This document shows, in pieces, positions 4,555 to 59,547 of a stretch of DNA of 64,000 nt (positions are counted from its first letter, which is position 1; every line of letters begins with the position of its first letter). Source of the DNA: Candidatus Levyibacteriota bacterium (GTDB lineage Bacteria; Patescibacteriota; Microgenomatia; Levybacterales; GWA1-39-11). The position numbers and the translations under genes were made by a program. The notes below the pieces were generated by a model that was not told where the DNA came from, did no database searches, and saw only the letters and a list, made by a program, of their open reading frames with translations. The stretch covers positions 9,792 through 73,791 of the forward strand of contig JBCLLY010000002.1 in assembly GCA_039738415.1 (NCBI GenBank). Direction: 5' to 3'.

Positions 4555-6534
4555 ATGAAATTTAGACTTGAGTCCAAATATAAACCTACCGGTGATCAGC
4601 CGGAGGCAATAGAAAATCTAACTAAAGGTTTTAAAAGTGGTAAAAAAAATCAGGTTCTTCTGGGAGTAACGGGTAGTGGAAAGACTTTTACAATTGCTAA
4701 TGTAATTCAAAATATCCAAAAGCCAACGCTGGTTATTTCACACAATAAAACTCTTGCAGCCCAACTCTATCAAGAACTTAGGGACTTTTTTCCTGAAAAT
4801 GCAGTTAGTTATTTTGTATCATATTACGATTTTTATCAGCCCGAAGCATATATGCCGACAACTGATACTTATATCGCAAAAGAAACTGAAGTAAACGACG
4901 AAATTGATAGATTAAGGCTTAGCGCAACCACGAATATTCTAACCCGTCCTGACACGATAGTCGTCGCCTCGGTTAGTGCTATTTACAATTTAGGTTCTCC
5001 TGACGAGTACGGAAAAGTCGTATTGGAAGTTGCCCAAGGAATGAAAATAGGCAGGCACTCAATTTTAGACCGCTTACTTGACTTAATGTATGCGCGAAAT
5101 GACTACGACTTTAAAAGGAGCACGTTTAGAGTTCGCGGAGATACTATTGAAGTACTTCCCGGTTATGAAAATCGCGGGGTGAGAATTACTCTAGCGGGAG
5201 ATTTTGTGGAAAAAATTGAACGTTTCAATCCCTTGAACGGGGAGCTTTTTGAAAGTATAAAAAACATAGTTATTTATCCGGCAAAACACTATATAACAGA
5301 CCCTACTAGCTATGATAGGGTGTTTGTTCAAATAAGAGCTGATATGGAAGAGCAAGTGAATTTTTTTCTTAAAAAAGGAAAACTGCTGGAGGCAAGGCGA
5401 TTAAAGCAAAGAACTGAATACGATTTAAAAATGATAAAAGAGTTGGGATATGTAAATGGGATTGAAAATTATTCCAGATATTTTGATGGAAGAGCGCCTG
5501 GCGACCCGCCATATTCTTTACTCGAATTTTTTAATAAAGTATCTGATGACTGGCTTCTTGTAATAGATGAATCTCATATGACAGTTCCACAAATTAGAGG
5601 GATGTATAACGGAGATCGTTCCCGTAAAGAAACTTTAGTAAATTATGGATTCCGTCTTCCGGCAGCATATGATAACAGACCGCTTAAATTTGAAGAATTT
5701 GAGCAAAAGATTAAAAAAACAATTTTTATGAGTGCTACACCCAGTGAGTGGGAGAAGGAAAAGTCAGGGAGGAAAAATATAGTTGAGCAATTGGTTCGTC
5801 CTACGGGAATTATAGATCCTGAGATAGAAATAAGAAAAACCGAAGGGCAAATATCGGATTTGATAGAAGAAATAAAAAAGACAGCTGAAAAAAAAGAGAG
5901 AGTTTTGGTTACAACACTTACAAAGAGGATGGCTGAGGATTTGACTACCTTTATGGAAGAGAGAGAAATTAAGGTAAATTATTTGCATAGTGGTGTAGAC
6001 ACTCTAGCACGCCAGGACGTGCTGGATGATTTGCGAAGCGGAGTCTATGATGTAGTCGTGGGAATAAACTTGCTCAGGGAAGGACTCGATTTACCCGAAG
6101 TATCACTTGTTGCAATACTTGATGCAGATAGAGAGGGGTTTTTGAGAAGCAAAACGTCACTCGTTCAAATCATGGGTCGTGCTGCACGCAGAGTTGGCGC
6201 TAGAGTTATACTTTATGCTGATAAAAATACAAGATCGATGAATGAAGCGATTGAAGAGGTAGATAGGCGTCGGCAATATCAAATGGAATACAATAAAAAA
6301 AACGGTATTACACCGGAAACAATTGAAAAAGCAATCCGCGCGAAGTTAATTGAGCTAAAGGAGAAAACAATTGAGGATTTAAAACCGCTTATGGATAGGG
6401 AAGTTTTACTGCCTGATGATAGGGAGAAATTAATCAAGCGCTTGCGCAGTGAAATGAAAGCCGCAGCAAAGGATTTGGATTTTGAAACCGCTGCGCAGCT
6501 GAGAGATAAAGTCCGCTATTTACAACAGCGCTAG
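4555..6534 (+). CDS. uvrB: excinuclease ABC subunit B
   Basis: From M55 of ORF 4393..6534 the protein reads MKFRLESKYKPTGDQPEAI...GVTGSGKTF, the canonical UvrB N-terminus. A C-terminal UVR motif is present. TGCTATAAT lies at 4537-4545. Confidence 0.95.
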   Translation: MKFRLESKYKPTGDQPEAIENLTKGFKSGKKNQVLLGVTGSGKTFTIANVIQNIQKPTLVISHNKTLAAQLYQELRDFFPENAVSYFVSYYDFYQPEAYMPTTDTYIAKETEVNDEIDRLRLSATTNILTRPDTIVVASVSAIYNLGSPDEYGKVVLEVAQGMKIGRHSILDRLLDLMYARNDYDFKRSTFRVRGDTIEVLPGYENRGVRITLAGDFVEKIERFNPLNGELFESIKNIVIYPAKHYITDPTSYDRVFVQIRADMEEQVNFFLKKGKLLEARRLKQRTEYDLKMIKELGYVNGIENYSRYFDGRAPGDPPYSLLEFFNKVSDDWLLVIDESHMTVPQIRGMYNGDRSRKETLVNYGFRLPAAYDNRPLKFEEFEQKIKKTIFMSATPSEWEKEKSGRKNIVEQLVRPTGIIDPEIEIRKTEGQISDLIEEIKKTAEKKERVLVTTLTKRMAEDLTTFMEEREIKVNYLHSGVDTLARQDVLDDLRSGVYDVVVGINLLREGLDLPEVSLVAILDADREGFLRSKTSLVQIMGRAARRVGARVILYADKNTRSMNEAIEEVDRRRQYQMEYNKKNGITPETIEKAIRAKLIELKEKTIEDLKPLMDREVLLPDDREKLIKRLRSEMKAAAKDLDFETAAQLRDKVRYLQQR

Positions 6535-6626: not shown

Positions 6627-9503
6627 ATGTTGGATAAAATAGTCATTAAAGGTGCTCGCGAACACAATTTAAAAAATATAGATTTAGAGATCCCAAAGAA
6701 TAAACTCGTGGTCTTCACTGGATTGTCAGGAAGCGGAAAAAGTTCTCTCGCCTTTGACACAATTTACGCTGAGGGGCAAAGGCGGTATGTTGAGAGTTTG
6801 TCCTCTTATGCCAGACAATTTTTGGGAGTGATGAAAAAGCCTGACGTTGAATTTATCGACGGGCTTTCTCCCAGTATTTCGATAGACCAAAAAACAACCT
6901 CTCACAATCCACGTTCAACGGTTGGAACAGTTACTGAAATTTACGATTATCTCCGTCTTTTATTTGCCCGCGTAGGACATCCTCATTGTCCCGAGTGCGG
7001 ACGGGAAATAACTAGAACCACAAAGGAAAAAATAGTAGACGAGATAGCCCAAAAGTATGTAACAGGAAATCCTACAAAAATTATGATTTTAGCGCCACTT
7101 GTTAGAGGTAGAAAGGGTGAATATCAGGATTTATTCAAAGATTTACGAAAAAGAGGCTTTCAACAGGTGAGAATTGATAGTCAAGTATTTGATTTAACTG
7201 ATGATATAGCACTTATTAAAACCAACTCTCATACGATTGATGCAATAGTGGACAGGATGATAATTGATAAAAATTATGAAAGGCAGCGGCTTACAGATTC
7301 TGTTGAGCAGGCACTGACACTAGGCAGTGGGGAAATTATAGTGTCGTTGGTAAAAGATAAAAGTTTTACATTCCCGCAAAAGCCAACCGAAATGGAAGAC
7401 CTTCTTTATTCGGAAAAATTTGCGTGTCCTGTGGATGGAACATCTGTTTCTGAAATTGAACCGCGCCTTTTCTCATTCAATTCCCCATATGGGGCATGTC
7501 CTGTATGCAATGGTTTAGGTGAAATTTTAAAAGTAAATGAAGAATTAGTCTTGAATGGAAATTTAACGATTTTAGAGGGTGGGATAATGCCTTTTTCAAA
7601 TCTGGAAGAGAGGGATACATGGCTTACACGCACAATAAAACATGTACTTGAGGAAAATGATATTCCGCTTGATGTGTACATAAGCAGTCTAAAGCCAGAG
7701 CAGAGAAAAATAATTCTTCATGGAACGGGAGATAAAATTTATCAGATAAAAGGAAAAAATAGATTTGGAGAAGATACAAAAATTTATGAACCATATCCCG
7801 GAGTAATTAAGTACTTGGTGGATAGGTATCACGAGACTGATTCAGAAATGATAAAAAATGAAGTTGGTAAGTTCATGCGTCCTACGAAATGCCCGGACTG
7901 CAATGGTACAAGACTTAAAAAGGAAGCGGTTGCTGTAACTATTGCCGGTAAATCAATTGTAGATTTGACAGATCTACCGATAGACGAAGCTTTTAATTTT
8001 TTTGAGAAAATTGCGGTAAGTTTGAGCTCAAAGGAAAAAGAAATTGCACAAATGGTTCTAAAGGAAATTTCTACAAGACTTAAATTTTTAAACGATGTAG
8101 GGCTTTCGTATCTTACTCTAGCGCGTAGTGCAGGGAGTCTTGCAGGCGGAGAAGCACAAAGAATAAGACTAGCATCTCAAATTGGAAGCGGTCTTTCGGG
8201 GGTTTTGTATGTTCTTGACGAGCCTTCTATCGGGCTTCATCCCATAGACAATGCAAAACTTATAGCAACGCTAAAGCACCTTAGAGATATAGGAAATACT
8301 GTAATAGTCGTAGAACATGATCAGGAAATAATGGAGGAGAGCGATTATATTTTTGACATCGGACCCGGTGCTGGGGAACAGGGAGGAAGAGTTATTGCGC
8401 AAGGAACTCCTGAGGAAATTAAAAAAGACAAAAATTCGCTAACGGGTCAGTATATTTCCGGAAAAAAGAAAATTAAAATTCCAAATAACACTAAAATTGA
8501 AGTTGAACAGGAGTATCTGGAAATTAAAGGAGTTAACGAGCATAATTTAAAAAAAATTGATGTTTCCTTTCCTCTGAATAAATTTATTTGCATAACGGGA
8601 GTGTCAGGAAGCGGTAAGTCAACTCTTATAAATGATGTTTTATACCACGCCCTTGCCCGTGAAAAAAATCCTTTTCATAGGGAGGAACCCGGAGAATTTG
8701 AGGAGCTTATAAATGACGCTTTGATAAAAAGAGTATTTATGATAGATCAGAGTCCAATCGGACGCACACCACGTTCAAATCCTGCAACATATACAGGCGC
8801 GTTTACATTTATCCGCCAAATTTTTGCAAATTGCCGGGAGGCCCGAATGCGCGGATACACACAGGGAAGATTTTCGTTTAATGTAAAGGGGGGCAGATGT
8901 GAGACTTGCGAAGGTGATGGTCAAATAAAAATAGAAATGCAATTTTTGCCAGATGTGTATGTCACTTGTGAAGCTTGTAATGGAGCACGTTATACGAAGG
9001 ATACACTGGAAATAGAATTTGAGGGCAAAAACATTTCAGATGTTTTGAATATGAGTGTCAGTGAGGCCTTAAAATTCTTTTCCTTTCACGAGGGTTTATC
9101 TAATAAATTGAAGACGCTTGATGAGGTAGGGTTGTCATATGTAAAATTGGGTCAATTTGCAACAACTCTTTCAGGAGGAGAAGCACAGCGCATAAAGCTT
9201 TCAGCGGAGTTATCAAAAAAAGGAAATGGAAGAAGTATTTATCTTCTTGATGAACCTACAACAGGGCTTCATTTTGCGGATTTGGAAAAGTTAATTTTAG
9301 TCTTAAGAAAATTAGTTGAAAAAGGGAATACGGTAATTGTAATAGAGCATAATCTTGATTTAATAAAAAATTCAGACTATATAATAGATTTAGGTCCTGA
9401 TGGTGGAGATAAGGGGGGAGAAATCGTCGCGGTCGGTTCACCCAAGGAGATTGCGGCAAATGTCTCTTCCTATACCGGCCGGTATCTAAAAAAATATTTA
9501 TAG
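6627..9503 (+). CDS. uvrA: excinuclease ABC subunit A
   Basis: 958 aa with two ABC ATPase modules (GLSGSGKSS, GVSGSGKST), zinc-finger Cys clusters and two LSGGE signatures. Confidence 0.97.
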   Translation: MLDKIVIKGAREHNLKNIDLEIPKNKLVVFTGLSGSGKSSLAFDTIYAEGQRRYVESLSSYARQFLGVMKKPDVEFIDGLSPSISIDQKTTSHNPRSTVGTVTEIYDYLRLLFARVGHPHCPECGREITRTTKEKIVDEIAQKYVTGNPTKIMILAPLVRGRKGEYQDLFKDLRKRGFQQVRIDSQVFDLTDDIALIKTNSHTIDAIVDRMIIDKNYERQRLTDSVEQALTLGSGEIIVSLVKDKSFTFPQKPTEMEDLLYSEKFACPVDGTSVSEIEPRLFSFNSPYGACPVCNGLGEILKVNEELVLNGNLTILEGGIMPFSNLEERDTWLTRTIKHVLEENDIPLDVYISSLKPEQRKIILHGTGDKIYQIKGKNRFGEDTKIYEPYPGVIKYLVDRYHETDSEMIKNEVGKFMRPTKCPDCNGTRLKKEAVAVTIAGKSIVDLTDLPIDEAFNFFEKIAVSLSSKEKEIAQMVLKEISTRLKFLNDVGLSYLTLARSAGSLAGGEAQRIRLASQIGSGLSGVLYVLDEPSIGLHPIDNAKLIATLKHLRDIGNTVIVVEHDQEIMEESDYIFDIGPGAGEQGGRVIAQGTPEEIKKDKNSLTGQYISGKKKIKIPNNTKIEVEQEYLEIKGVNEHNLKKIDVSFPLNKFICITGVSGSGKSTLINDVLYHALAREKNPFHREEPGEFEELINDALIKRVFMIDQSPIGRTPRSNPATYTGAFTFIRQIFANCREARMRGYTQGRFSFNVKGGRCETCEGDGQIKIEMQFLPDVYVTCEACNGARYTKDTLEIEFEGKNISDVLNMSVSEALKFFSFHEGLSNKLKTLDEVGLSYVKLGQFATTLSGGEAQRIKLSAELSKKGNGRSIYLLDEPTTGLHFADLEKLILVLRKLVEKGNTVIVIEHNLDLIKNSDYIIDLGPDGGDKGGEIVAVGSPKEIAANVSSYTGRYLKKYL

Positions 9504-18388: not shown

Positions 18389-18504
18389 CACTTTAACAAT
18401 CTCAGTGTTTCACACTGAGATTGTTGGAGATTGGTCGGGACGAGGAGTTTATCCCGCTGAGCAAAGCGAAGGAACTGAAAGCGGGAAGTCCCTGGTCGCT
18501 CACA
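18373..18504 (+). repeat. direct repeat of the tRNA-Lys 3' end flanking a structured 96-nt spacer
   Basis: AGTCCCTGGTCGCTCACA occurs at 18373-18390 and again at 18487-18504. The spacer holds a perfect 14-bp hairpin (18395-18425) and the motif GGGAC GAGGAGTTTAT CCCGC...GCGGG. Confidence 0.85.
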
Positions 18505-18568
18505 AAATTCCGCCGATATGCTTTAATATATTGACAGGAATGTTGAGATCAATGGTATAATATTTTAC

Positions 18569-31755: not shown

Positions 31756-31913
31756 ATCTACATAGCGGGCAAATCTATTCTTGTCAGCCAAGGCTGATCC
31801 GCCTCTGGCGGAAGCTACTAGAGCATATGTTATATTTTACCTAAAAAAAATGTAATTTGAAAGTTTTTAAAGCCTAGCAGTTTTTTTAATATGATGCCAA
31901 GTCGGACTCCTTG

Positions 31914-35080: not shown

Positions 35081-35464
35081 TCGTCGAATGCAGGATAGCG
35101 TTTTCAATCTGATCAGTAAATCAGATATTCAACATTTATCCTCCTTCTCCTTACTTCAAAAAGCTATCGCTTTTTGACAAATTGCTTTGCAATTTAAACT
35201 ATCATTCCTCCTTACTTAATCCCGCTTTGCGGGATTAAGTGAACAAAAGCAGGCTGAAAAACCGAAGTTCGATTATATATCGAACAAAGGTCAAAGGCCT
35301 AAGCTCTTGCGTATATTCTAACGATTTCACCTTAAAAACACAATAAAGAGTTATTATAGGTTCAAAATCATAGGTTTAGTACTTGACAAAATTAATTTGA
35401 ACGTGCATATTAGTATGGTAAGTTCAATTGAACCTATTTGAACTGAAGGGGGGTGAATAACAAT

Positions 35465-36500: not shown

Positions 36501-36717
36501 ATGCGTAGAAAAGCGGGAAAGTGAACATTGTCCAAGGTTATTTACAAACAGAACAAAACTAGAAAGAGTTCGTGATTTATAGATTGAAGCTCACATGACC
36601 TTACGATCGGGGAATCGGTCAAACGCTTCGTCGAGCGCAAATCCGCCGAAGCGGAAAATCGCTCTGCATCCCACGGACTTACGTCCAGGGAATTCCGCGA
36701 AGGAGGATTAGAAAGAT

Positions 36718-37158
36718 TTACTGCGTAACTGTAAGAGTTCCTACCATTCCCATTTTTCTGTGGTTACCGATACTACAGTAGTATTCAAATTCTCCAACCT
36801 TATCTGCTACAAATGTAACAGAAGAGCTGTCTCCGGTATTTACCTGACTGGTTGCCGCATTAAAATCATCAAGCGTCCAATCATGAAGACCATCCTCGCT
36901 AGTAAAATTTATTGTCACTGTTTGACCTTTTTTTACTTCAATAGTGTCTTGGGAGAATTCAAAATTCTTACCAGTAATATTAAAAACTGCTACATTCTCA
37001 TCTATTTTTTCCTCTTCAACTACTGTTTCTTGTACGCCATCAACTCCAGGCACAGGCATTCCGGAAGTAGGTTGAGCAGATGGTCTCGTTAGTAAATAGG
37101 CAGCACCCCCTAAAACTATTATTACTACTGCTATGATAGTGATTTTAGTTCCGTTCAT
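36718..37158 (-). CDS. membrane-anchored cupredoxin-like (type-1 copper site) protein
   Basis: It has an N-terminal TM helix, an upstream GLHDW motif, and a C-terminal YYCSIGNHRKMGM (Cys-x4-His-x4-Met) motif. Confidence 0.7.
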   Translation of the reverse strand: MNGTKITIIAVVIIVLGGAAYLLTRPSAQPTSGMPVPGVDGVQETVVEEEKIDENVAVFNITGKNFEFSQDTIEVKKGQTVTINFTSEDGLHDWTLDDFNAATSQVNTGDSSSVTFVADKVGEFEYYCSIGNHRKMGMVGTLTVTQ

Positions 37159-37223
37159 ATTTACTATTATTAAAGCATTATCAATATTTTGTCAACCCCC
37201 TGTTTACCCCGTATATTTGAGTG

Positions 37224-37281
37224 TGGACTCGAGGGGATTCGAACCCCTAATCTGTCCGACGTACATCGGGCCGCTCTATAC
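37224..37281 (-). pseudogene. 3' tRNA fragment (D-arm 3' strand to discriminator), degenerate anticodon arm
   Basis: The minus strand reads TATAGAGCG GCCCGATGTACGTCGGAC AGATT AGGGG TTCGAAT CCCCT CGAGTCC A. No matching 5' acceptor strand is present nearby. Confidence 0.5.
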
Positions 37282-37341
37282 TGTGGACCGGATCCCGCTT
37301 AGCGGGACAACCCCTCCATTTTCGCCCCCTAGATTTAACTG

Positions 37342-37414
37342 TGGACCTTAGGGGATTCGAACCCCTCACCTTTTCTATGCCATAGAAACGCTCTACCAAA
37401 TGAGCTAAAGGCCC
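37342..37414 (-). tRNA. tRNA-Ala(GGC)
   Basis: Acceptor GGGCCTT/AAGGTCC (with G3:U70), anticodon arm TTTCT ATGGCAT AGAAA, T arm AGGGG TTCGAAT CCCCT. TACAAT lies 12 nt upstream. Confidence 0.85.
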
Positions 37415-37479
37415 TCTGGTCAAATTGTATCAAAACTGAAAACTTATTCCTAGACAAGCAGTGGTAAAATATAGTTCAG

Positions 37480-38682
37480 ATGCACATACCACTAGCAAAA
37501 AAATTAAGGCCTCAAAATTTGGACGAATTTGTAGGGCAGGAACATTTGGTCGGAAAAGGAAAACCTATTCAGAGAATGATTCAGACTGGAAATGTAACCA
37601 GTATGATTCTGTGGGGCCCTCCCGGTTGTGGCAAAACAACACTTGCGACAATTATCGCAAATTCAATTGATGCGAATTTTGAATTCTTTTCAGCCGTAAC
37701 CAGCGGAGTAGACCACGTTAGAAAAATTATTAAAGAAGCTGAAAGTATAATAAAGGAAAAAGAACGGAAAACAATTCTTTTTGTAGATGAAATTCATAGA
37801 TTTAATAAGGCACAGCAGGATGCATTTTTACCCCACGTTGAAAATGGAACGATAATACTCATTGGTGCGACAACTGAAAATCCTGGCTTTAGAATTAACG
37901 CGCCTCTACTCTCACGCAGCCAGCTATTTGTACTTAAAGAACTTACAAAGGAAGATATAGAAAAAGTGGTCAAAAGAGCTATTTCATTTTATCCAAAGGC
38001 AACAATTGACAGAGAAGCGCTCAGCCACATCGTGCATTTTTCAAATGGTGATGCCCGCTTTGCAATAAATGCAGTTGAAACGGCTGTTACTCTAAAGAAC
38101 AAAATTAACTTAAAAGTGGCTGAGGAGGCAATGCAGAAAAGGGCAGTATATTATGATAAGAAAGGGGACTATCACTACGATACAATTTCAGCATTTATAA
38201 AATCTATGCGTGGCGGAGACCCTGATGCAACACTTCATTATCTTGCTAGGATGATAAAAGCGGGCGAGGACCCGATTTTTATAGCACGAAGAATGGTTAT
38301 ATTTGCATCTGAAGATATTGGAAATGCTCAACCGACAGCACTAGTTCTTGCTACAAGCTCTATGCAGGCAGTTCATATGATAGGACTTCCCGAGGCGCAG
38401 CTAATTTTAGCCCAGACCGCAACCTATCTGGCAACAGCTAAAAAATCCATAGCATCCACTGTCGGAATAGGAGCAGCAATGAATGACGTGGAGATGGAAA
38501 ATCTTCCGCAAATTCCTATGCATCTTCGAAATGCTGCAAATAAAGTTATGAAAAATCTAGGATATGGAAAAGGACACGAGCGCTACGCTTGGAAAACTGA
38601 GCGCGAAACAGGAAAAAAAGTAGAACAGGAATATCTACCCGAAAAGTTAAGGGGCAAGAAGTACTATAGGAAAGACTGGTAA
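37480..38682 (+). CDS. rarA: replication-associated recombination protein A (AAA+ ATPase)
   Basis: LRPQNLDEFVGQEHLVG...WGPPGCGKTTLA, with a C-terminal MgsA domain. Confidence 0.9.
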   Translation: MHIPLAKKLRPQNLDEFVGQEHLVGKGKPIQRMIQTGNVTSMILWGPPGCGKTTLATIIANSIDANFEFFSAVTSGVDHVRKIIKEAESIIKEKERKTILFVDEIHRFNKAQQDAFLPHVENGTIILIGATTENPGFRINAPLLSRSQLFVLKELTKEDIEKVVKRAISFYPKATIDREALSHIVHFSNGDARFAINAVETAVTLKNKINLKVAEEAMQKRAVYYDKKGDYHYDTISAFIKSMRGGDPDATLHYLARMIKAGEDPIFIARRMVIFASEDIGNAQPTALVLATSSMQAVHMIGLPEAQLILAQTATYLATAKKSIASTVGIGAAMNDVEMENLPQIPMHLRNAANKVMKNLGYGKGHERYAWKTERETGKKVEQEYLPEKLRGKKYYRKDW

Positions 38683-39026: not shown

Positions 39027-39112
39027 CTTGAAATTCAATTGGGACGAGAAGTTTATCCTGCTGTGCCCGCCTCTGGAGGGAACGAAGTTGAAGGAAGTCC
39101 CGCCCCAGGCAC
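39011..39112 (+). repeat. direct repeat of the tRNA-Leu(UAA) 3' end flanking a 68-nt spacer with the GAGAAGTTTAT motif
   Basis: AGTCCCGCCCCAGGCAC occurs at 39011-39027 and again at 39096-39112. The spacer contains GGGAC GAGAAGTTTAT CCTGC (39041-39061). Confidence 0.85.
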
Positions 39113-49393: not shown

Positions 49394-49522
49394 CGACTGA
49401 TTTAACAAAATCTTAAATTTCTCCGCCTGCTGCTGGACATGGATCCCCTTCGATTCGCTCAGGGTAAACGAACCGAGATAAACAGCTCCAAAGGCTATCC
49501 CGCCAATTTGTCTTTACCAGAG

Positions 49523-53106: not shown

Positions 53107-53187
53107 GCCGAGGTGGTGAAATGGTATACACGCAGCCTTGAGGTGGCTGTGCCGCAAGGCGTGCAGGTTCAAGTCCTGTTCTCGGCA
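53107..53187 (+). tRNA. tRNA-Leu(GAG)
   Basis: Acceptor GCCGAGG/TCTCGGC, anticodon arm CAGCC TTGAGGT GGCTG, long variable arm, T loop TTCAAGT. A TTGTAA-N16-TACAAT promoter lies upstream. Confidence 0.85.
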
Positions 53188-53381
53188 CACTTCGCTTCGT
53201 TCAGTGTAAACTGATTGAGTGAAAGCTTTGGTTTGTAAACTAAAGAATAATGAAGCTTGCTACTTTTAAAATTGCAACGCAATTTGTCATCCCTCCTAGG
53301 CGGGATGAAATGAGGAGAAATGACGAAGCGTAAAGGTTTTAAGCTCTGCTTAAAACCGCTAAGCGGAGTCCACTAGGACAC

Positions 53382-53456: not shown

Positions 53457-53593
53457 GAATTAGAGGTGGGGAATTGGCTTATTGGACATCTTATGACGAT
53501 GGATCAGAAATATGTGCAGTGCTTCCATTGATTAGGAATTTTCGAAAAAGTAGGTTCGAGCCATTATTTTCTACGCACGATAAAAAAATATTT

Positions 53594-53640
53594 TCCTGGT
53601 GATGGGATTCGAACCCATTTGTAAACTGAGACTGAGCTAA
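53594..53640 (-). pseudogene. internally deleted tRNA-like remnant
   Basis: The minus strand reads TTAGCTCAGT CTCAGTTTACAA ATGGG TTCGAAT CCCAT CACCAGG A. The D-arm start, a TAC-containing loop and the T arm are present, but no 5' acceptor strand. Confidence 0.4.
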
Positions 53641-54331: not shown

Positions 54332-54498
54332 ACTTCTCGCCCTGCGCTATGTAGGGTGCAACAGCAAACACTAAGTTTATCGAAGTGTGGGCGCTAGAGG
54401 GCTCCCCGATGTTCATCGGGATAAACTTCTCGCCCTCAACTATGTAGGTTGCAACAGCAAACACTGAGTTTATCTAAAGTGTGGGCGCTAGAGGGCTC
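54332..54498 (-). repeat. two-copy tandem repeat (period about 93-94 nt) of the tRNA-Val(UAC) 3' end plus trailer
   Basis: Units 54332-54404 and 54425-54498 differ at about 7 positions. Each ends (tRNA sense: begins) with GAGCCCTCTAGCGCCCACACTT. They are separated by the hairpin CCCGATGAACATCGGG. Confidence 0.85.
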
Positions 54499-54554: not shown

Positions 54555-54639
54555 GACGTCAAAATTAATTTCGCACGTTCGTTTATCGCAAAGCAATAAA
54601 CTTTTCACTCAATCAGTTTACACTGAACGAAGTGAAGTG

Positions 54640-54712
54640 TGCTGAGACCAGGAATCGAACCCGGATAACTTGTTCTTCAGACAAGCGCCTTGACCAACTT
54701 GGCAATCTCAGC
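54640..54712 (-). tRNA. tRNA-Phe(GAA)
   Basis: Acceptor GCTGAGA/TCTCAGC, anticodon arm CTTGT CTGAAGA ACAAG, T arm CCGGG TTCGATT CCTGG. The D arm is atypical (GCCAAGTTGGTCAAGGC). Confidence 0.75.
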
Positions 54713-59302: not shown

Positions 59303-59483
59303 GCGCGCATAGCTCAGTGGTAGAGTACTTCATTGACACCTGCCCGCTATGTACTTGGATCTATAGCTCAGTTGGTTAGAGCGTTGCATTGACATTGCAA
59401 AGGTCAGTGGTTCGAGTCCACTTAGATCCACAAGCAAGGCAGGCGGGTCGAAGGGGTCCATGGTTCAAACCCATGTGCGCGCA
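59303..59483 (+). tRNA. tRNA-Val(GAC) interrupted after the anticodon loop by a 109-nt insert (outer gene)
   Basis: The 5' half 59303-59339 and 3' half 59449-59483 share a 7/7 acceptor stem (GCGCGCA/TGCGCGC), an anticodon loop TTGACAC and a T arm CATGG TTCAAAC CCATG. Joined, they give 72 nt. Confidence 0.65.
59357..59430 (+). tRNA. tRNA-Val(GAC) (inner gene, complete)
   Basis: Acceptor GGATCTA/TAGATCC, anticodon arm TTGCA TTGACAT TGCAA, T arm AGTGG TTCGAGT CCACT. Confidence 0.85.
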
Positions 59484-59547
59484 CTACTCCAAGGTCATCC
59501 CGCTAAGGGGGATCAGGCGAGCATTTTTAATTTTTAATTATTCTTCA

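Follow-up and report, generated by a model that had tools for sequence, protein, structure and literature searches.

Probable remnants of serially replaced tRNA-Ala(GGC) genes behind a live tRNA gene in Levybacteria

The live tRNA-Ala(GGC) gene of this uncultured, Levybacteria-like member of the Patescibacteria is followed, at 37224–37340 of the window (the whole stretch of DNA analysed, 64 kb), by what is probably a stack of dead 3' ends left by serial replacement of that gene, yielding no working RNA. The locus appears to be a hot spot of tRNA gene replacement, and the dead ends of two earlier versions behind the live gene point to an unusually rapid turnover of tRNA genes in this lineage. 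The original prediction had envisaged repeated tRNA-targeted insertion or replacement, a general idea that is supported by a mosaic between sister genomes, a live allele that differs between these two and equals that of a more distant relative, the match of the relics to other alleles, and a nested tRNA-Val(GAC) gene.

Structure of the tRNA-Ala locus

The intact tRNA-Ala(GGC) that had been predicted is borne out by both ARAGORN and the Rfam tRNA model (Table 1). Its sequence, allele A, has the ends GGGCCTT...AAGGTCC-A with G3:U70 present, and CCA is not encoded. A consensus promoter scan did not detect the candidate extended −10 element TGATACAAT; relatives have TTTGATAAAAT or TTTGGTACAAT at its position.

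Table 1. Features of the tRNA-Ala(GGC) locus, in window coordinates
Feature	Position	Strand	Basis or remark
Small membrane-anchored cupredoxin gene, downstream	36718-37158	(-)	Pfam Cupredoxin_1, Copper-bind
Promoter-like site of cupredoxin gene: TTGACA, 18 nt, AATAAT	37166-37195	(-)	11/12 match
Trailer 2, CACTCAAATATACGGGGTAAACAGGGGG	37196-37223	(-)	identical in sister genome
Relic 2, 3' end of tRNA-Ala allele C	37224-37252	(-)	blastn 28/29, E = 7e-9
Middle segment, ATAGAGCGGCCCGATGTACGTCGGAC	37254-37279	(-)	no recognisable tRNA origin
Second copy of GGTCCACAGT: relic 1 end and 4 nt of relic 1 trailer	37280-37289	(-)	
Relic 1, 3' third of tRNA-Ala allele D	37284-37319	(-)	flanks match live L082 gene
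GC-rich hairpin TCCCGC-TAA-GCGGGA, at T-arm-core position	37293-37307	(-)	
Trailer 1, CAGTTAAATCTAGGGGGCGAAA, homologous to trailer 2	37320-37341	(-)	repeat family D7
First copy of GGTCCACAGT: live tRNA end and 4 nt of trailer	37338-37347	(-)	
tRNA-Ala(GGC), ARAGORN limits	37341-37414	(-)	ARAGORN
Live tRNA-Ala(GGC), allele A	37342-37414	(-)	Rfam tRNA, 62.8 bits
TGATACAAT, candidate extended −10 of tRNA-Ala gene	37424-37432	(-)	putative, read from sequence
rarA/mgsA, divergent, upstream	37480-38682	(+)	gene context

Relic 1 consists of the 3' strand of the anticodon stem with the variable region (ATGGAGGGGTTG), a hairpin (TCCCGCTAAGCGGGA), the acceptor 3' strand CCGGTCC, and the discriminator A. 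The hairpin stands where allele D, which is live in the sister locus L082, has its 15-nt T-arm core: relic 1 reads ATGGAGGGGTTG, 15 nt, TCCGGTCCACAGT, and L082 reads ATGGAGGGGGTTG, 15-nt T-arm core, TCCGGTCCACAGT, the last element being the 3' end of L082 allele D and its trailer. The 3' flanks agree at 13 of 13 positions and the 5' flanks at 12 of 13, the latter with a single 1-nt gap, and in both sequences the two flanks lie exactly 15 nt apart. The same hairpin-for-T-arm construction is found in the allele C background of L083 and L154. In the original prediction this region was a spacer related to the tRNA, with a hairpin and a 10-nt repeat. Both of these are there, and GGTCCACAGT has exactly two exact copies in the 64 kb, as against 0.02 expected by chance; the spacer itself, however, is the allele D relic. 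Because it mirrors L082 allele D, the second copy of GGTCCACAGT is part of relic 1 and, judged by its sequence, is not a duplicate of the live gene's end.

Relic 2 comprises the variable loop GATT, a perfect T-arm (AGGGG-TTCGAAT-CCCCT), the acceptor 3' strand CGAGTCC and the discriminator A, and it is identical at 28 of 29 nt to the live tRNA-Ala of L083, L154, L155, and L156, all with allele C. Its local score against allele C is 27, while shuffled sequences reach at most 12. A T-arm and acceptor 3' strand without a usable 5' half had been predicted, and they are indeed found at 37224–37248. The wider claim of a single 5'-truncated second tRNA holds for its last 29–30 nt, which are tRNA-derived, but not for the whole, as comparison of ten loci shows two stacked relics. 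The 26–28 nt on its 5' side (ATAGAGCG..., 37254–37279), formerly read as half of a D-arm and a 6-nt anticodon loop, have as their best tRNA match the 7-nt word TAGAGCG, which scores below the shuffles' median best. Likewise, the join at 37279/37280, seen in one assembly only, had been taken to lead into the interior of another tRNA, and the adjoining sequence is not recognisably tRNA. A search for the parent, as the original prediction had proposed, gave allele C for the last 29 nt and none for the middle segment, either among the relatives or among 20 tRNAs and alleles. This segment holds a small palindrome (CCGA-TGTACG-TCGG) and has no counterpart in any relative compared; L082 carries a different, unalignable 52-nt segment at its position. 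The palindrome resembles the hairpin of the tRNA-Val(TAC) trailer (CCCGATG.AC.TCGG), a likeness that is not significant.

The two trailers belong to a longer repeat, family D7 (37316–37371 and 37198–37253, 56 nt, 77% identity, period 118 nt), which covers the T-arm, the acceptor strand, and a 26-nt trailer; its two copies are in register, and this extends to their flanks. Trailer 1 is approximately 79% identical to its counterpart in L082.

Comparison with orthologous loci

Using rarA/mgsA as an anchor for retrieval, we compared 10 orthologous rarA/cupredoxin intergenic loci, all of them from metagenome assemblies. The simple state is found in L085, L086, L088, and L157, where a single tRNA-Ala(GGC) ends 4–5 nt upstream of the cupredoxin TTGACA and relics are absent; L158 and L159 lack the relic stretch as well. 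In a scan of GTDB species representatives, the nearest (L001 and L002) had no tRNA upstream of rarA and were therefore uninformative. Four tRNA-Ala alleles occur, with mutual identities of 65–75%, and their distribution does not track RarA similarity. For example, the window's allele A is identical to the tRNA-Ala of L159 (73/73, RarA 83%) and nearly so to that of L157 (72/73), and by reading of the alignment L088 and L158 also have allele A; the sister L082 (RarA 98%) shares only 51 of 74 positions.

The window and L082 are approximately 99% identical in their flanks and form a mosaic precisely at the tRNA-Ala locus. Mismatches number 0–2 per 50 nt in the flanking genes and 13–25 across 37200–37449, where identical blocks, one of 30 nt around the hairpin and one of 50 nt that runs from CCCCT up to the promoter, are interspersed with unalignable ones. 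Relic 2 of L082 has neither a T-loop nor the 5' half of a T-arm.

Since the source is a metagenome-assembled genome (MAG), it might be asked whether two strain variants of the locus were joined serially during assembly. Several tRNA-Ala alleles circulate in related populations, and the join at 37279/37280 is present only in the window's assembly. We nevertheless hold such an artefact to be extremely improbable: the joins share words of 10 and 17 nt, below the k-mer sizes usual for such assemblers (a general figure, not this assembly's own), a second MAG (L082) has both the hairpin-and-repeat arrangement and relic 2 followed by its trailer, the allele C version is found in two separate assemblies (L083, ENA; L154, JGI), and the flanks are collinear with those of the relatives.

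Parallel events at other tRNA genes

The original prediction had named, as a point that would count against it, that the repeat might be common around tRNA genes. In another sense it is common: exact tRNA 3'-end repeats stand behind at least 4 of the window's 16 tRNA genes, far above chance, and are therefore a systematic phenomenon and no accident. Exact copies of 17–22 nt lie 68–97 nt behind tRNA-Lys, tRNA-Leu(TAA), and tRNA-Val(TAC), all beginning in the T-loop, and tRNA-Leu(TAA) of L085 and L158 has no such copy. A conserved motif, GGGnCGAGRAGTTTATCC, stands ahead of the repeats at three other tRNAs; it tells against the replacement reading preferred here, as it suggests a defined element over random illegitimate joins. 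At tRNA-Gln, the live alleles differ between sister genomes and the old 3' relic is the same. The clearest case is the tRNA-Val(GAC) gene, which is intact in a sister genome (L161) and is split in the window at positions 38/39 by a 111-nt insert (59339–59449) that carries a complete second tRNA-Val(GAC), with complementary flanks GCCCGC/GCGGGT. Altogether, two strains that are approximately 99% identical differ in structure at 4 of 11 comparable tRNA loci (Ala, Gln, Val(GAC), and the Pro leader). Rfam searches of the whole window and of the Lys, Leu(GAG)/Gly/Val(TAC)/Phe, and Ala regions returned tRNAs only, without ribozyme or intron.

A quite unlikely alternative is that the repeats are scars of site-specific integration, in which small elements with a copy of the tRNA 3' end were inserted by a tyrosine integrase crossing over in the T-loop or 3' end, the gene was regenerated, and the old 3' end was displaced as an attR-like repeat. 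Under such an alternative the element bodies were deleted later, or were always miniature with the integrase encoded elsewhere, as in cis-mobilizable elements. A same-sense repeat of the 3' end is in fact present downstream of the intact tRNA-Ala (10 nt in the window), and agrees with the resident allele over 11 nt in L082 and 12 nt in L083, the repeats at Lys, Leu, and Val start where integration could, in the T-loop, and empty sites exist in relatives (L085, L086, L088, and L157 for Ala; L085 and L158 for Leu(TAA)). The T-loop is said to be among the known sublocations in a classification of integrase sites within tRNA genes, reportedly by Williams in 2002. Displaced tRNA fragments are, moreover, accepted marks of island ends (PMC4383910; PMC9897764). 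The loci point both ways as to whether the fragment equals the 3' part of the regenerated gene: relic 1 does so in L082 and L083, while in the window relic 1 matches allele D, not the live allele A, and relic 2 matches allele C. However, only 48–97 nt separate the tRNA end from the repeat, and an integrase-bearing island between repeats is absent. Integration at the 3' end also leaves unexplained both the differences between whole alleles, 5' acceptor strand included, and the entry of a complete tRNA gene at positions 38/39.

Searches for an enzyme or donor were likewise negative within their scope. Pfam detected no integrase, transposase, or reverse transcriptase in 10 ORFs beside the affected tRNAs, the called genes of the fetched related loci included no integrase or transposase, and two viral scans gave no true match. 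The pattern of hairpin plus Ala end had no match in viral contigs; in a metagenome scan it had four, of which three were chance occurrences in GC-rich contigs and one was the L083 locus itself. The 60 matches of GACGAGRAGTTTATCC in viral contigs had contexts unrelated to tRNA trailers, apparently coding (D-E-E-F-I), and were taken as chance. Neither a donor nor a circular form nor an enzyme was found in the contigs and loci searched, which counts against the preferred reading too. The literature searched held no relevant account of bacterial tRNA genes that are nested or have been replaced, and the window's arrangement is not described in PMC13011429, PMC9897764, or PMC4383910.

The tandem arrangement of family D7 raises an explanation of a more local kind, which we consider unlikely: an old tandem duplication of tRNA-Ala with its trailer (118-nt period), followed by decay of one or more downstream copies and then a swap of the live allele by homologous recombination, so that the relics would need no insertion of a foreign cassette. 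The 56-nt duplicate does take in the trailer, tRNA-Val(TAC) has its end and trailer in the same tandem form (family D6, 53 nt at 89%), and a tandem duplication that has one end inside the gene directly leaves the gene whole with a partial 3' copy behind it. The relics, however, are of other allele lineages than the live gene and than each other, the hairpin lies exactly at the junctions, and the events at other loci fit poorly: the tRNA-Val(GAC) insert is no tandem duplication, and a 5' fragment of tRNA-Gln in L161 is parted from the live gene by sequence that does not copy the upstream flank.

Proposed course of replacement

Under serial replacement, the reading that we prefer, incoming DNA would place a whole tRNA-Ala gene, along with short flanks of its own, next to or into the resident gene, and the downstream joint would fall in the T-arm or acceptor strand, where the 3' part of the tRNA is conserved. 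Selection would retain one intact copy, the upstream one; the resident copy would lose its 5' part and have its 3' end displaced toward the cupredoxin promoter. This would have happened at least twice, leaving first the copy of allele C and next that of allele D, and in the window's lineage a further swap of the live gene, to allele A, may have come later. The dead copies would have gained GC-rich hairpin modules, or had their T-arm replaced by them, and many tRNA genes of this AT-rich genome (36% GC) may have leaders and trailers made of the same modules. We infer this order of events, and entry was probably by recombination with imported DNA and not through an enzyme-driven mobile element.

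It is possible, though we think it doubtful, that the relics are footprints of a small, protein-less mobile "tRNA cassette" in Levybacteria, and reflect a selfish or homing-like turnover of essential tRNA genes. Such a cassette would carry a complete tRNA between a hairpin-bearing leader and a trailer, with the resident gene for the same anticodon as its target, and because it brings its own working copy, its insertion would not be lethal. Seen this way, the Val(GAC) insert would be fresh, and the Ala, Gln, Lys, Leu, and Val(TAC) cases older and eroded. Other conceivable readings are a CRISPR-like one, with the hairpin as handle and the tRNA end as guide, a target duplication of casposon or spacer type, and reverse transcription that halts in the T-loop.

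In Patescibacteria, genomes are tiny and most tRNA genes are single-copy and essential. If a defined element or recombination route drives the turnover, this would be a new way to exchange essential RNA genes horizontally, would explain the tRNA-like debris that confuses the annotation of such genomes, and would provide natural markers of strain history. If only decay after duplication is at work, the locus is a caution that a perfect T-arm and acceptor strand here are a fossil and no gene.

Tests for a functional RNA

The relics are probably without function. That the stretch instead gives a functional tRNA-like RNA, whether a 91-nt tRNA-Ala-like molecule, a t-element or mascRNA-like signal, or the acceptor piece of a permuted tmRNA, appears very improbable to us. 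The first of these would have the acceptor GGGGUUG/CGAGUCC with G3:U70, the hairpin as D arm, and an insertion in the anticodon loop, and the second would be a cleavage signal for RNase P/Z on a read-through transcript. A scan of the locus found no terminator between the live tRNA-Ala and the relics, which would allow for such an RNA, as would the perfect T-arm and an end-to-end alignment to the tRNA model. This alignment (91 nt, 37224–37314) was forced by applying the model with a lax filter to 131 nt, and its 22.9 bits fall short of the gathering score of 29; its acceptor stem is broken by a G-G mismatch, the hairpin is taken as "D arm", and 30 nt stand in place of a 7-nt anticodon loop. ARAGORN made no tRNA call in 37224–37340, no tRNA match to the relic stretch was listed in an Rfam search of 901 nt, and the 117-nt stretch itself matched no Rfam family above threshold.

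Two candidates for the missing 5' strand were tried and rejected, GGATCCG (37289–37295) with a C-A mismatch and GGGGTTG (37307–37313, also 37193–37199) with a G-G mismatch, the model staying below threshold in both cases. The scores for mascRNA-menRNA (RF01684; 18.7 bits against 42.5) and permuted tmRNA (17.9 bits against 47) could be cited in favour of a functional RNA and, like that of the tRNA model, are under the gathering threshold. Neither the mascRNA-like nor the permuted tmRNA form is conserved; for tmRNA, ARAGORN gave no call, and downstream of the supposed piece are the promoter and protein-coding gene of the cupredoxin. Group I and II introns were rejected too, with no match to a covariance model in Rfam and intervening stretches of 15–60 nt.

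Judged by the 7-bp acceptor stem, the GG of the D-loop, and the 7-nt anticodon loop with U33, the relic stretch does not qualify as a functional tRNA, since its "D arm" is a hairpin with a 3-nt loop and the anticodon position holds a loop of either 4–6 or approximately 30 nt. The minimum free energy of the 117 nt is no better than that of shuffles (z = 0.18). Conservation in close relatives also speaks against function: L082 has lost part of the T-arm and has another middle segment, and six relatives are without the stretch altogether.

Comparison with known systems

The attR fragments of tyrosine-integrase islands and prophages resemble the window in that a copy of the 3' end stands in the same sense behind an intact tRNA, repeats begin in the T-loop or acceptor strand, several may stack at one tRNA, and empty sites exist in relatives (Islander, PMC4383910; PMC9897764). 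They differ in lying kilobases from the gene, with no equivalent in the window of their integrase or cargo; here the relics are of other alleles than the live gene, whole genes are exchanged with their 5' strand, and a GC hairpin interrupts the relic's T-arm or takes its place. CIMEs, reportedly described by Pavlovic in 2004 and Bellanger in 2011 as att-flanked remnants of integrative elements without recombination genes, are alike in their attL- and attR-like repeats at a tRNA gene, the absence of an integrase, and tandem accretion at one site. They measure kilobases and derive from identifiable ICEs, whereas the window's units measure 50–110 nt and have no known parent element.

Homology-facilitated illegitimate recombination after DNA uptake, said to have been reported by de Vries and Wackernagel in 2002, is alike in that foreign DNA is added through a single homologous anchor, while its other joint falls at a short word common to both partners, for instance GGTCCACAGT. 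It is also additive, leaving part of the resident sequence in place, and fits the allele mosaic between sister genomes. However, it predicts neither a recurring hairpin or motif at the joints nor insertion within a tRNA without flanking homology.

In Archaea, disrupted tRNA genes take the form of introns at odd positions and of split and permuted tRNAs. Group I introns occur in tRNA genes of Patescibacteria (PMC13011429). Both are alike in having intervening sequence in tRNA genes, as does the nested tRNA-Val(GAC), but the window's inserts (24–111 nt) match no group I or II model, and an intact copy always stands beside the interrupted one. We know of no bacterial splicing endonuclease. The t-elements of plant mitochondria and mascRNA (RF01684) share with relic 2 a T-arm and an acceptor-like helix without a working anticodon arm; they differ in that the window's version scores below their threshold, has a mismatched 5' strand, is not conserved in L082, and does not occur in most relatives.

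Small GC-rich palindromic modules are known from AT-rich genomes as Rickettsia palindromic elements, yeast mitochondrial GC clusters, and REP/BIME. The window's short GC hairpins are similarly over-represented, with seven GC-rich 6-bp hairpins observed against approximately one expected (TCCCGC-NNN-GCGGGA alone occurs three times), and they are dispersed in tRNA leaders and trailers and inside copies of RNA genes. The family is common to the leaders of different tRNA genes and genomes, and TCCCGC-TAA-GCGGGA also occurs in tRNA leaders and a pseudo-tRNA-His of L154. Sister strains differ in whether they have leader sequence that bears such modules and, separately, in a 118-nt GC-rich insert. 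Unlike the known modules, these candidate mobile hairpins are tied to tRNA genes and copies of tRNA ends, and no enzyme or target rule emerged for them. The identical 15-mer takes the place of the T-arm core in two allele backgrounds, with only about 13 nt on each side matching the live gene. This is hard to square with decay plus gene conversion and so tells against the preferred reading; it may reflect a process that is templated or targeted, or else some function.

Two relics behind the tRNA-Ala gene

The window comes from the Patescibacteria metagenome-assembled genome GCA_039731645.1; it has a G+C content of ~36%, and its RarA protein clusters with Levybacteria sequences. Between rarA and a small cupredoxin gene lies one normal tRNA-Ala(GGC), and the 118 nt behind it hold all the features listed in the original prediction, namely a hairpin, an exact 10-mer repeat, and a perfect T-arm followed by CGAGTCC-A. 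GGTCCACAGT has two exact copies in 64 kb, the second within these 118 nt, where 0.02 are expected, and the tRNA end with its 26-nt trailer is repeated at a period of 118 nt (56 nt, 77% identity).

Window features discussed in the text
Feature	Position	Strand	Remark
tRNA-Arg(TCT), TGCCCGCTATGTA upstream	31756-31830	-	
Leaders before tRNA genes	35081-35335; 53260-53381	-; +	
Hairpin-rich insert	36586-36705	+	between Zip and cupredoxin 3′ ends
Small cupredoxin gene	37158-36718	-	intergenic boundary
Relic 2	37224-37252	-	
T-arm, then CGAGTCC-A	37224-37248	-	
Relic 1	37284-37319	-	
Hairpin TCCCGC-TAA-GCGGGA	37293-37307	-	
tRNA-Ala(GGC)	37342-37414	-	ARAGORN; Rfam 62.8 bits
rarA	37480-38682		divergent from tRNA-Ala side; other boundary
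tRNA-Lys(CTT), own 3′-end copy	18390-18506	+	
tRNA-Leu(TAA), own 3′-end copy	39028-39112	+	
tRNA-Val(TAC), own 3′-end copy	54383-54480	-	
tRNA-Gln(TTG) and partial copy	49420-49521	-	
Orphan tRNA 3′ end	~53590-53640	-	
ACTTCaCTTCGTTCAGTGTAAACTGATTGAGTGAAA trailers (tRNA-Phe; tRNA-Leu(GAG))	54603-54661; 53166-53224	-; +	
tRNA-Val(GAC), split	59303-59484	+	
TGCCCGCTATGTA upstream of inner tRNA-Val(GAC)	59339-59356	+	
Inner tRNA-Val(GAC)	59357-59431		

At normal settings, ARAGORN and Rfam call no second tRNA behind tRNA-Ala, and lax filters yield a forced alignment over 91 nt, in which the hairpin serves as D arm and 30 nt remain in the anticodon loop; its 22.9 bits fall short of the curated 29. 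The 117 nt behind the gene show no more stable folding than shuffled sequence does (z = 0.18). They are unlikely to yield a functional tRNA-like RNA, because the T-arm is broken in the sister genome and the stretch is missing from most relatives.

The window and the orthologous intergenic regions of relatives, retrieved via their RarA proteins, carry four versions of tRNA-Ala(GGC) with a mutual identity of 65–75%, whose 5′ acceptor strands are GGGCCTT (allele A; window, L088, L157, L158, L159), GGGCCCG (allele B; L085, L086), GGGCTCG (allele C; L083/L154, L155/L156), and GGGCCGG (allele D; the sister locus L082). Of the final 29 nt of the supposed second tRNA, 28 agree with the 3′ end of allele C (local score 27, against a maximum of 12 in shuffles). 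The stretch before the 10-mer repeat, previously taken for a spacer, reproduces the 3′ third of that gene in allele D: both ATGGAGGGGTTG and TCCGGTCCACAGT agree with L082, with a gap of exactly 15 nt in both, filled by the T-arm core AGAGTTCGAATCTCT in allele D and by the hairpin in the window. The locus thus holds two relics, and the second 10-mer is just the end of relic 1. The proposed 5′-truncated tRNA is thus tRNA-derived at its 3′ end, but not a single truncated gene. Nor do the 26 nt between the relics bear out the proposed half D-arm and 6-nt-loop anticodon arm: they match nothing in the relatives, and their longest stretch in common with any tRNA is 7 nt, shorter than for shuffled sequences.

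Probable turnover of tRNA-Ala alleles

In L085, L086, L088, and L157 the state is simple: 4–5 nt separate the end of a single tRNA-Ala from the TTGACA of the downstream cupredoxin promoter, with nothing more. The L082 flanks are 95–99.8% identical to the window, and mismatches per 50 nt number 0–2 in genes against 13–25 across 37200-37449, where identical blocks (30 nt round the hairpin; 50 nt from CCCCT to the promoter) alternate with unalignable ones (the live, intact gene plus the flank upstream of it; the central part of relic 2). In the window, the live gene is identical (73/73) to the allele of L159, a relative with only 83% RarA identity, and matches the sister allele at 51 of 74 positions. 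L083/L154 have the same kind of relic, with the hairpin in place of the T-arm, but its flanks there are those of allele C and agree with the live gene of these loci. Since the shared words are 10–17 nt long and the arrangement is also found in other assemblies, misassembly is unlikely.

The best-supported explanation is that the region behind tRNA-Ala is a graveyard of replaced tRNA-Ala genes at a hot spot. A new gene would enter, the old one would lose its 5′ part while its 3′ end stays downstream, and the process would be repeated; the dead copies may afterwards gather hairpin modules. There are three candidate routes of entry. If imported DNA was added by recombination, with the joint in the conserved tRNA 3′ part, the mosaic would be accounted for. 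A site-specific integrase would account for the repeats, but searches turned up neither an integrase nor cargo nor a viral relative. A tandem duplication of purely local origin agrees with the 118-nt period and does not account for the differing allele origins. The replacement would be of greater interest if a defined “tRNA cassette” element underlies it.

Small genes are also gained or lost between relatives in the rarA–cupredoxin intergenic region. In L083 (200-2500) it holds a NUDIX gene plus two unknown ORFs; in L155/L156, ~950 nt that include an unknown ORF follow directly on tRNA-Ala; and L158 has additional non-coding sequence.

Similar arrangements at other tRNA genes

The clearest parallel case is tRNA-Val(GAC), which is intact (73 nt) in the sister genome (L161 10053-10125), whereas in the window 111 nt interrupt it at positions 38/39. 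The insert holds a complete, different tRNA-Val(GAC) with 17–18-nt flanks, of which GCCCGC and GCGGGT are mutually complementary, and joining the outer halves restores a tRNA (ARAGORN). The papers found on introns in tRNA genes of Patescibacteria (PMC13011429) deal with group I introns and do not describe arrangements of the present kind. Both the inner gene and tRNA-Arg(TCT) have the motif TGCCCGCTATGTA 17 nt upstream; upstream of the latter there is also GCTCTAGTAGCT, resembling the gene’s own 5′ end, and then a hairpin, TCCGCC-AGA-GGCGGA.

Exact 17–22-nt copies of their own 3′ ends, starting in the T-loop, lie 68–97 nt behind tRNA-Lys(CTT), tRNA-Leu(TAA), and tRNA-Val(TAC), in the order trailer, motif GGGnCGAGRAGTTTATCC, hairpin, 3′-end copy. 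At tRNA-Val(TAC) the trailer is present once more (53 nt at 89%), and the tRNA-Leu(TAA) copy is missing at the orthologous L085 and L158 sites. Two features argue for a process more specific than random joins: the joints of these three tRNAs all have this conserved motif, and at tRNA-Ala an identical 15-mer stands in place of the T-arm in two different allele backgrounds.

Behind tRNA-Gln(TTG) follows a copy of its 3′ two-thirds, identical at 27 of 28 positions from anticodon arm to T-loop, then interrupted by a 24-nt T-loop insert and continued by an older 3′ end. In the sister genome (L161 1-460) the live tRNA-Gln allele is different and the old 3′ end is shared; 161 nt upstream, directly after the promoter-like TGATATAAT, the 5′ end of the gene is present in a second copy of 15 nt.

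Among known systems, the closest are the displaced tRNA fragments that mark where integrated islands end (PMC4383910, PMC9897764), together with integrase-less island remnants (CIMEs) and the small GC-rich palindromic modules of AT-rich genomes. Unlike these, the present case is miniature and without an enzyme gene, swaps whole alleles, and includes a tRNA gene that lies within the gene of its own isoacceptor.

An orphan tRNA 3′ end (ATGGG-TTCGAAT-CCCAT-CACCAGG-A), which no tool calls as a tRNA, lies downstream of tRNA-Gly(GCC), just before a DUF2268 gene. L154 has three further tRNA-copy features (2370-2452, 6273-6360, 7120-7201): a full-length pseudo-tRNA-His just upstream of the live tRNA-His, with TCCCGCTTGGCGGGA replacing the T-arm; a 10–13-nt copy of the tRNA-Arg(TCT) 5′ end 80 nt upstream of the gene; and an 11-nt 3′-end repeat behind tRNA-Gly(TCC), preceded by GAGAAGTTTAC and absent from tRNA-Gly(TCC) of the window.

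Leaders, trailers, and hairpin modules

GC-rich 6-bp hairpins are seven-fold enriched in the window. Many tRNA genes, here and in L085, L086, L154, and L158, are preceded by leaders of ~100 nt, built as GTC-hairpin-GAAATAAGGAGG...-second hairpin, whose hairpins vary in sequence while pairing is kept. Different tRNA genes in different genomes have leader modules in common, and their leaders are 79–91% alike. The tRNA-Pro leader (~225 nt, two tandem modules) is absent from the sister L082, as is a 118-nt GC-rich, hairpin-rich insert, which has no further copy among the window and the fetched relatives. Finally, tRNA-Phe and tRNA-Leu(GAG) have a near-identical 36-nt trailer, ACTTCaCTTCGTTCAGTGTAAACTGATTGAGTGAAA, which at its start is similar to the trailers behind tRNA-Lys and tRNA-Val(TAC).
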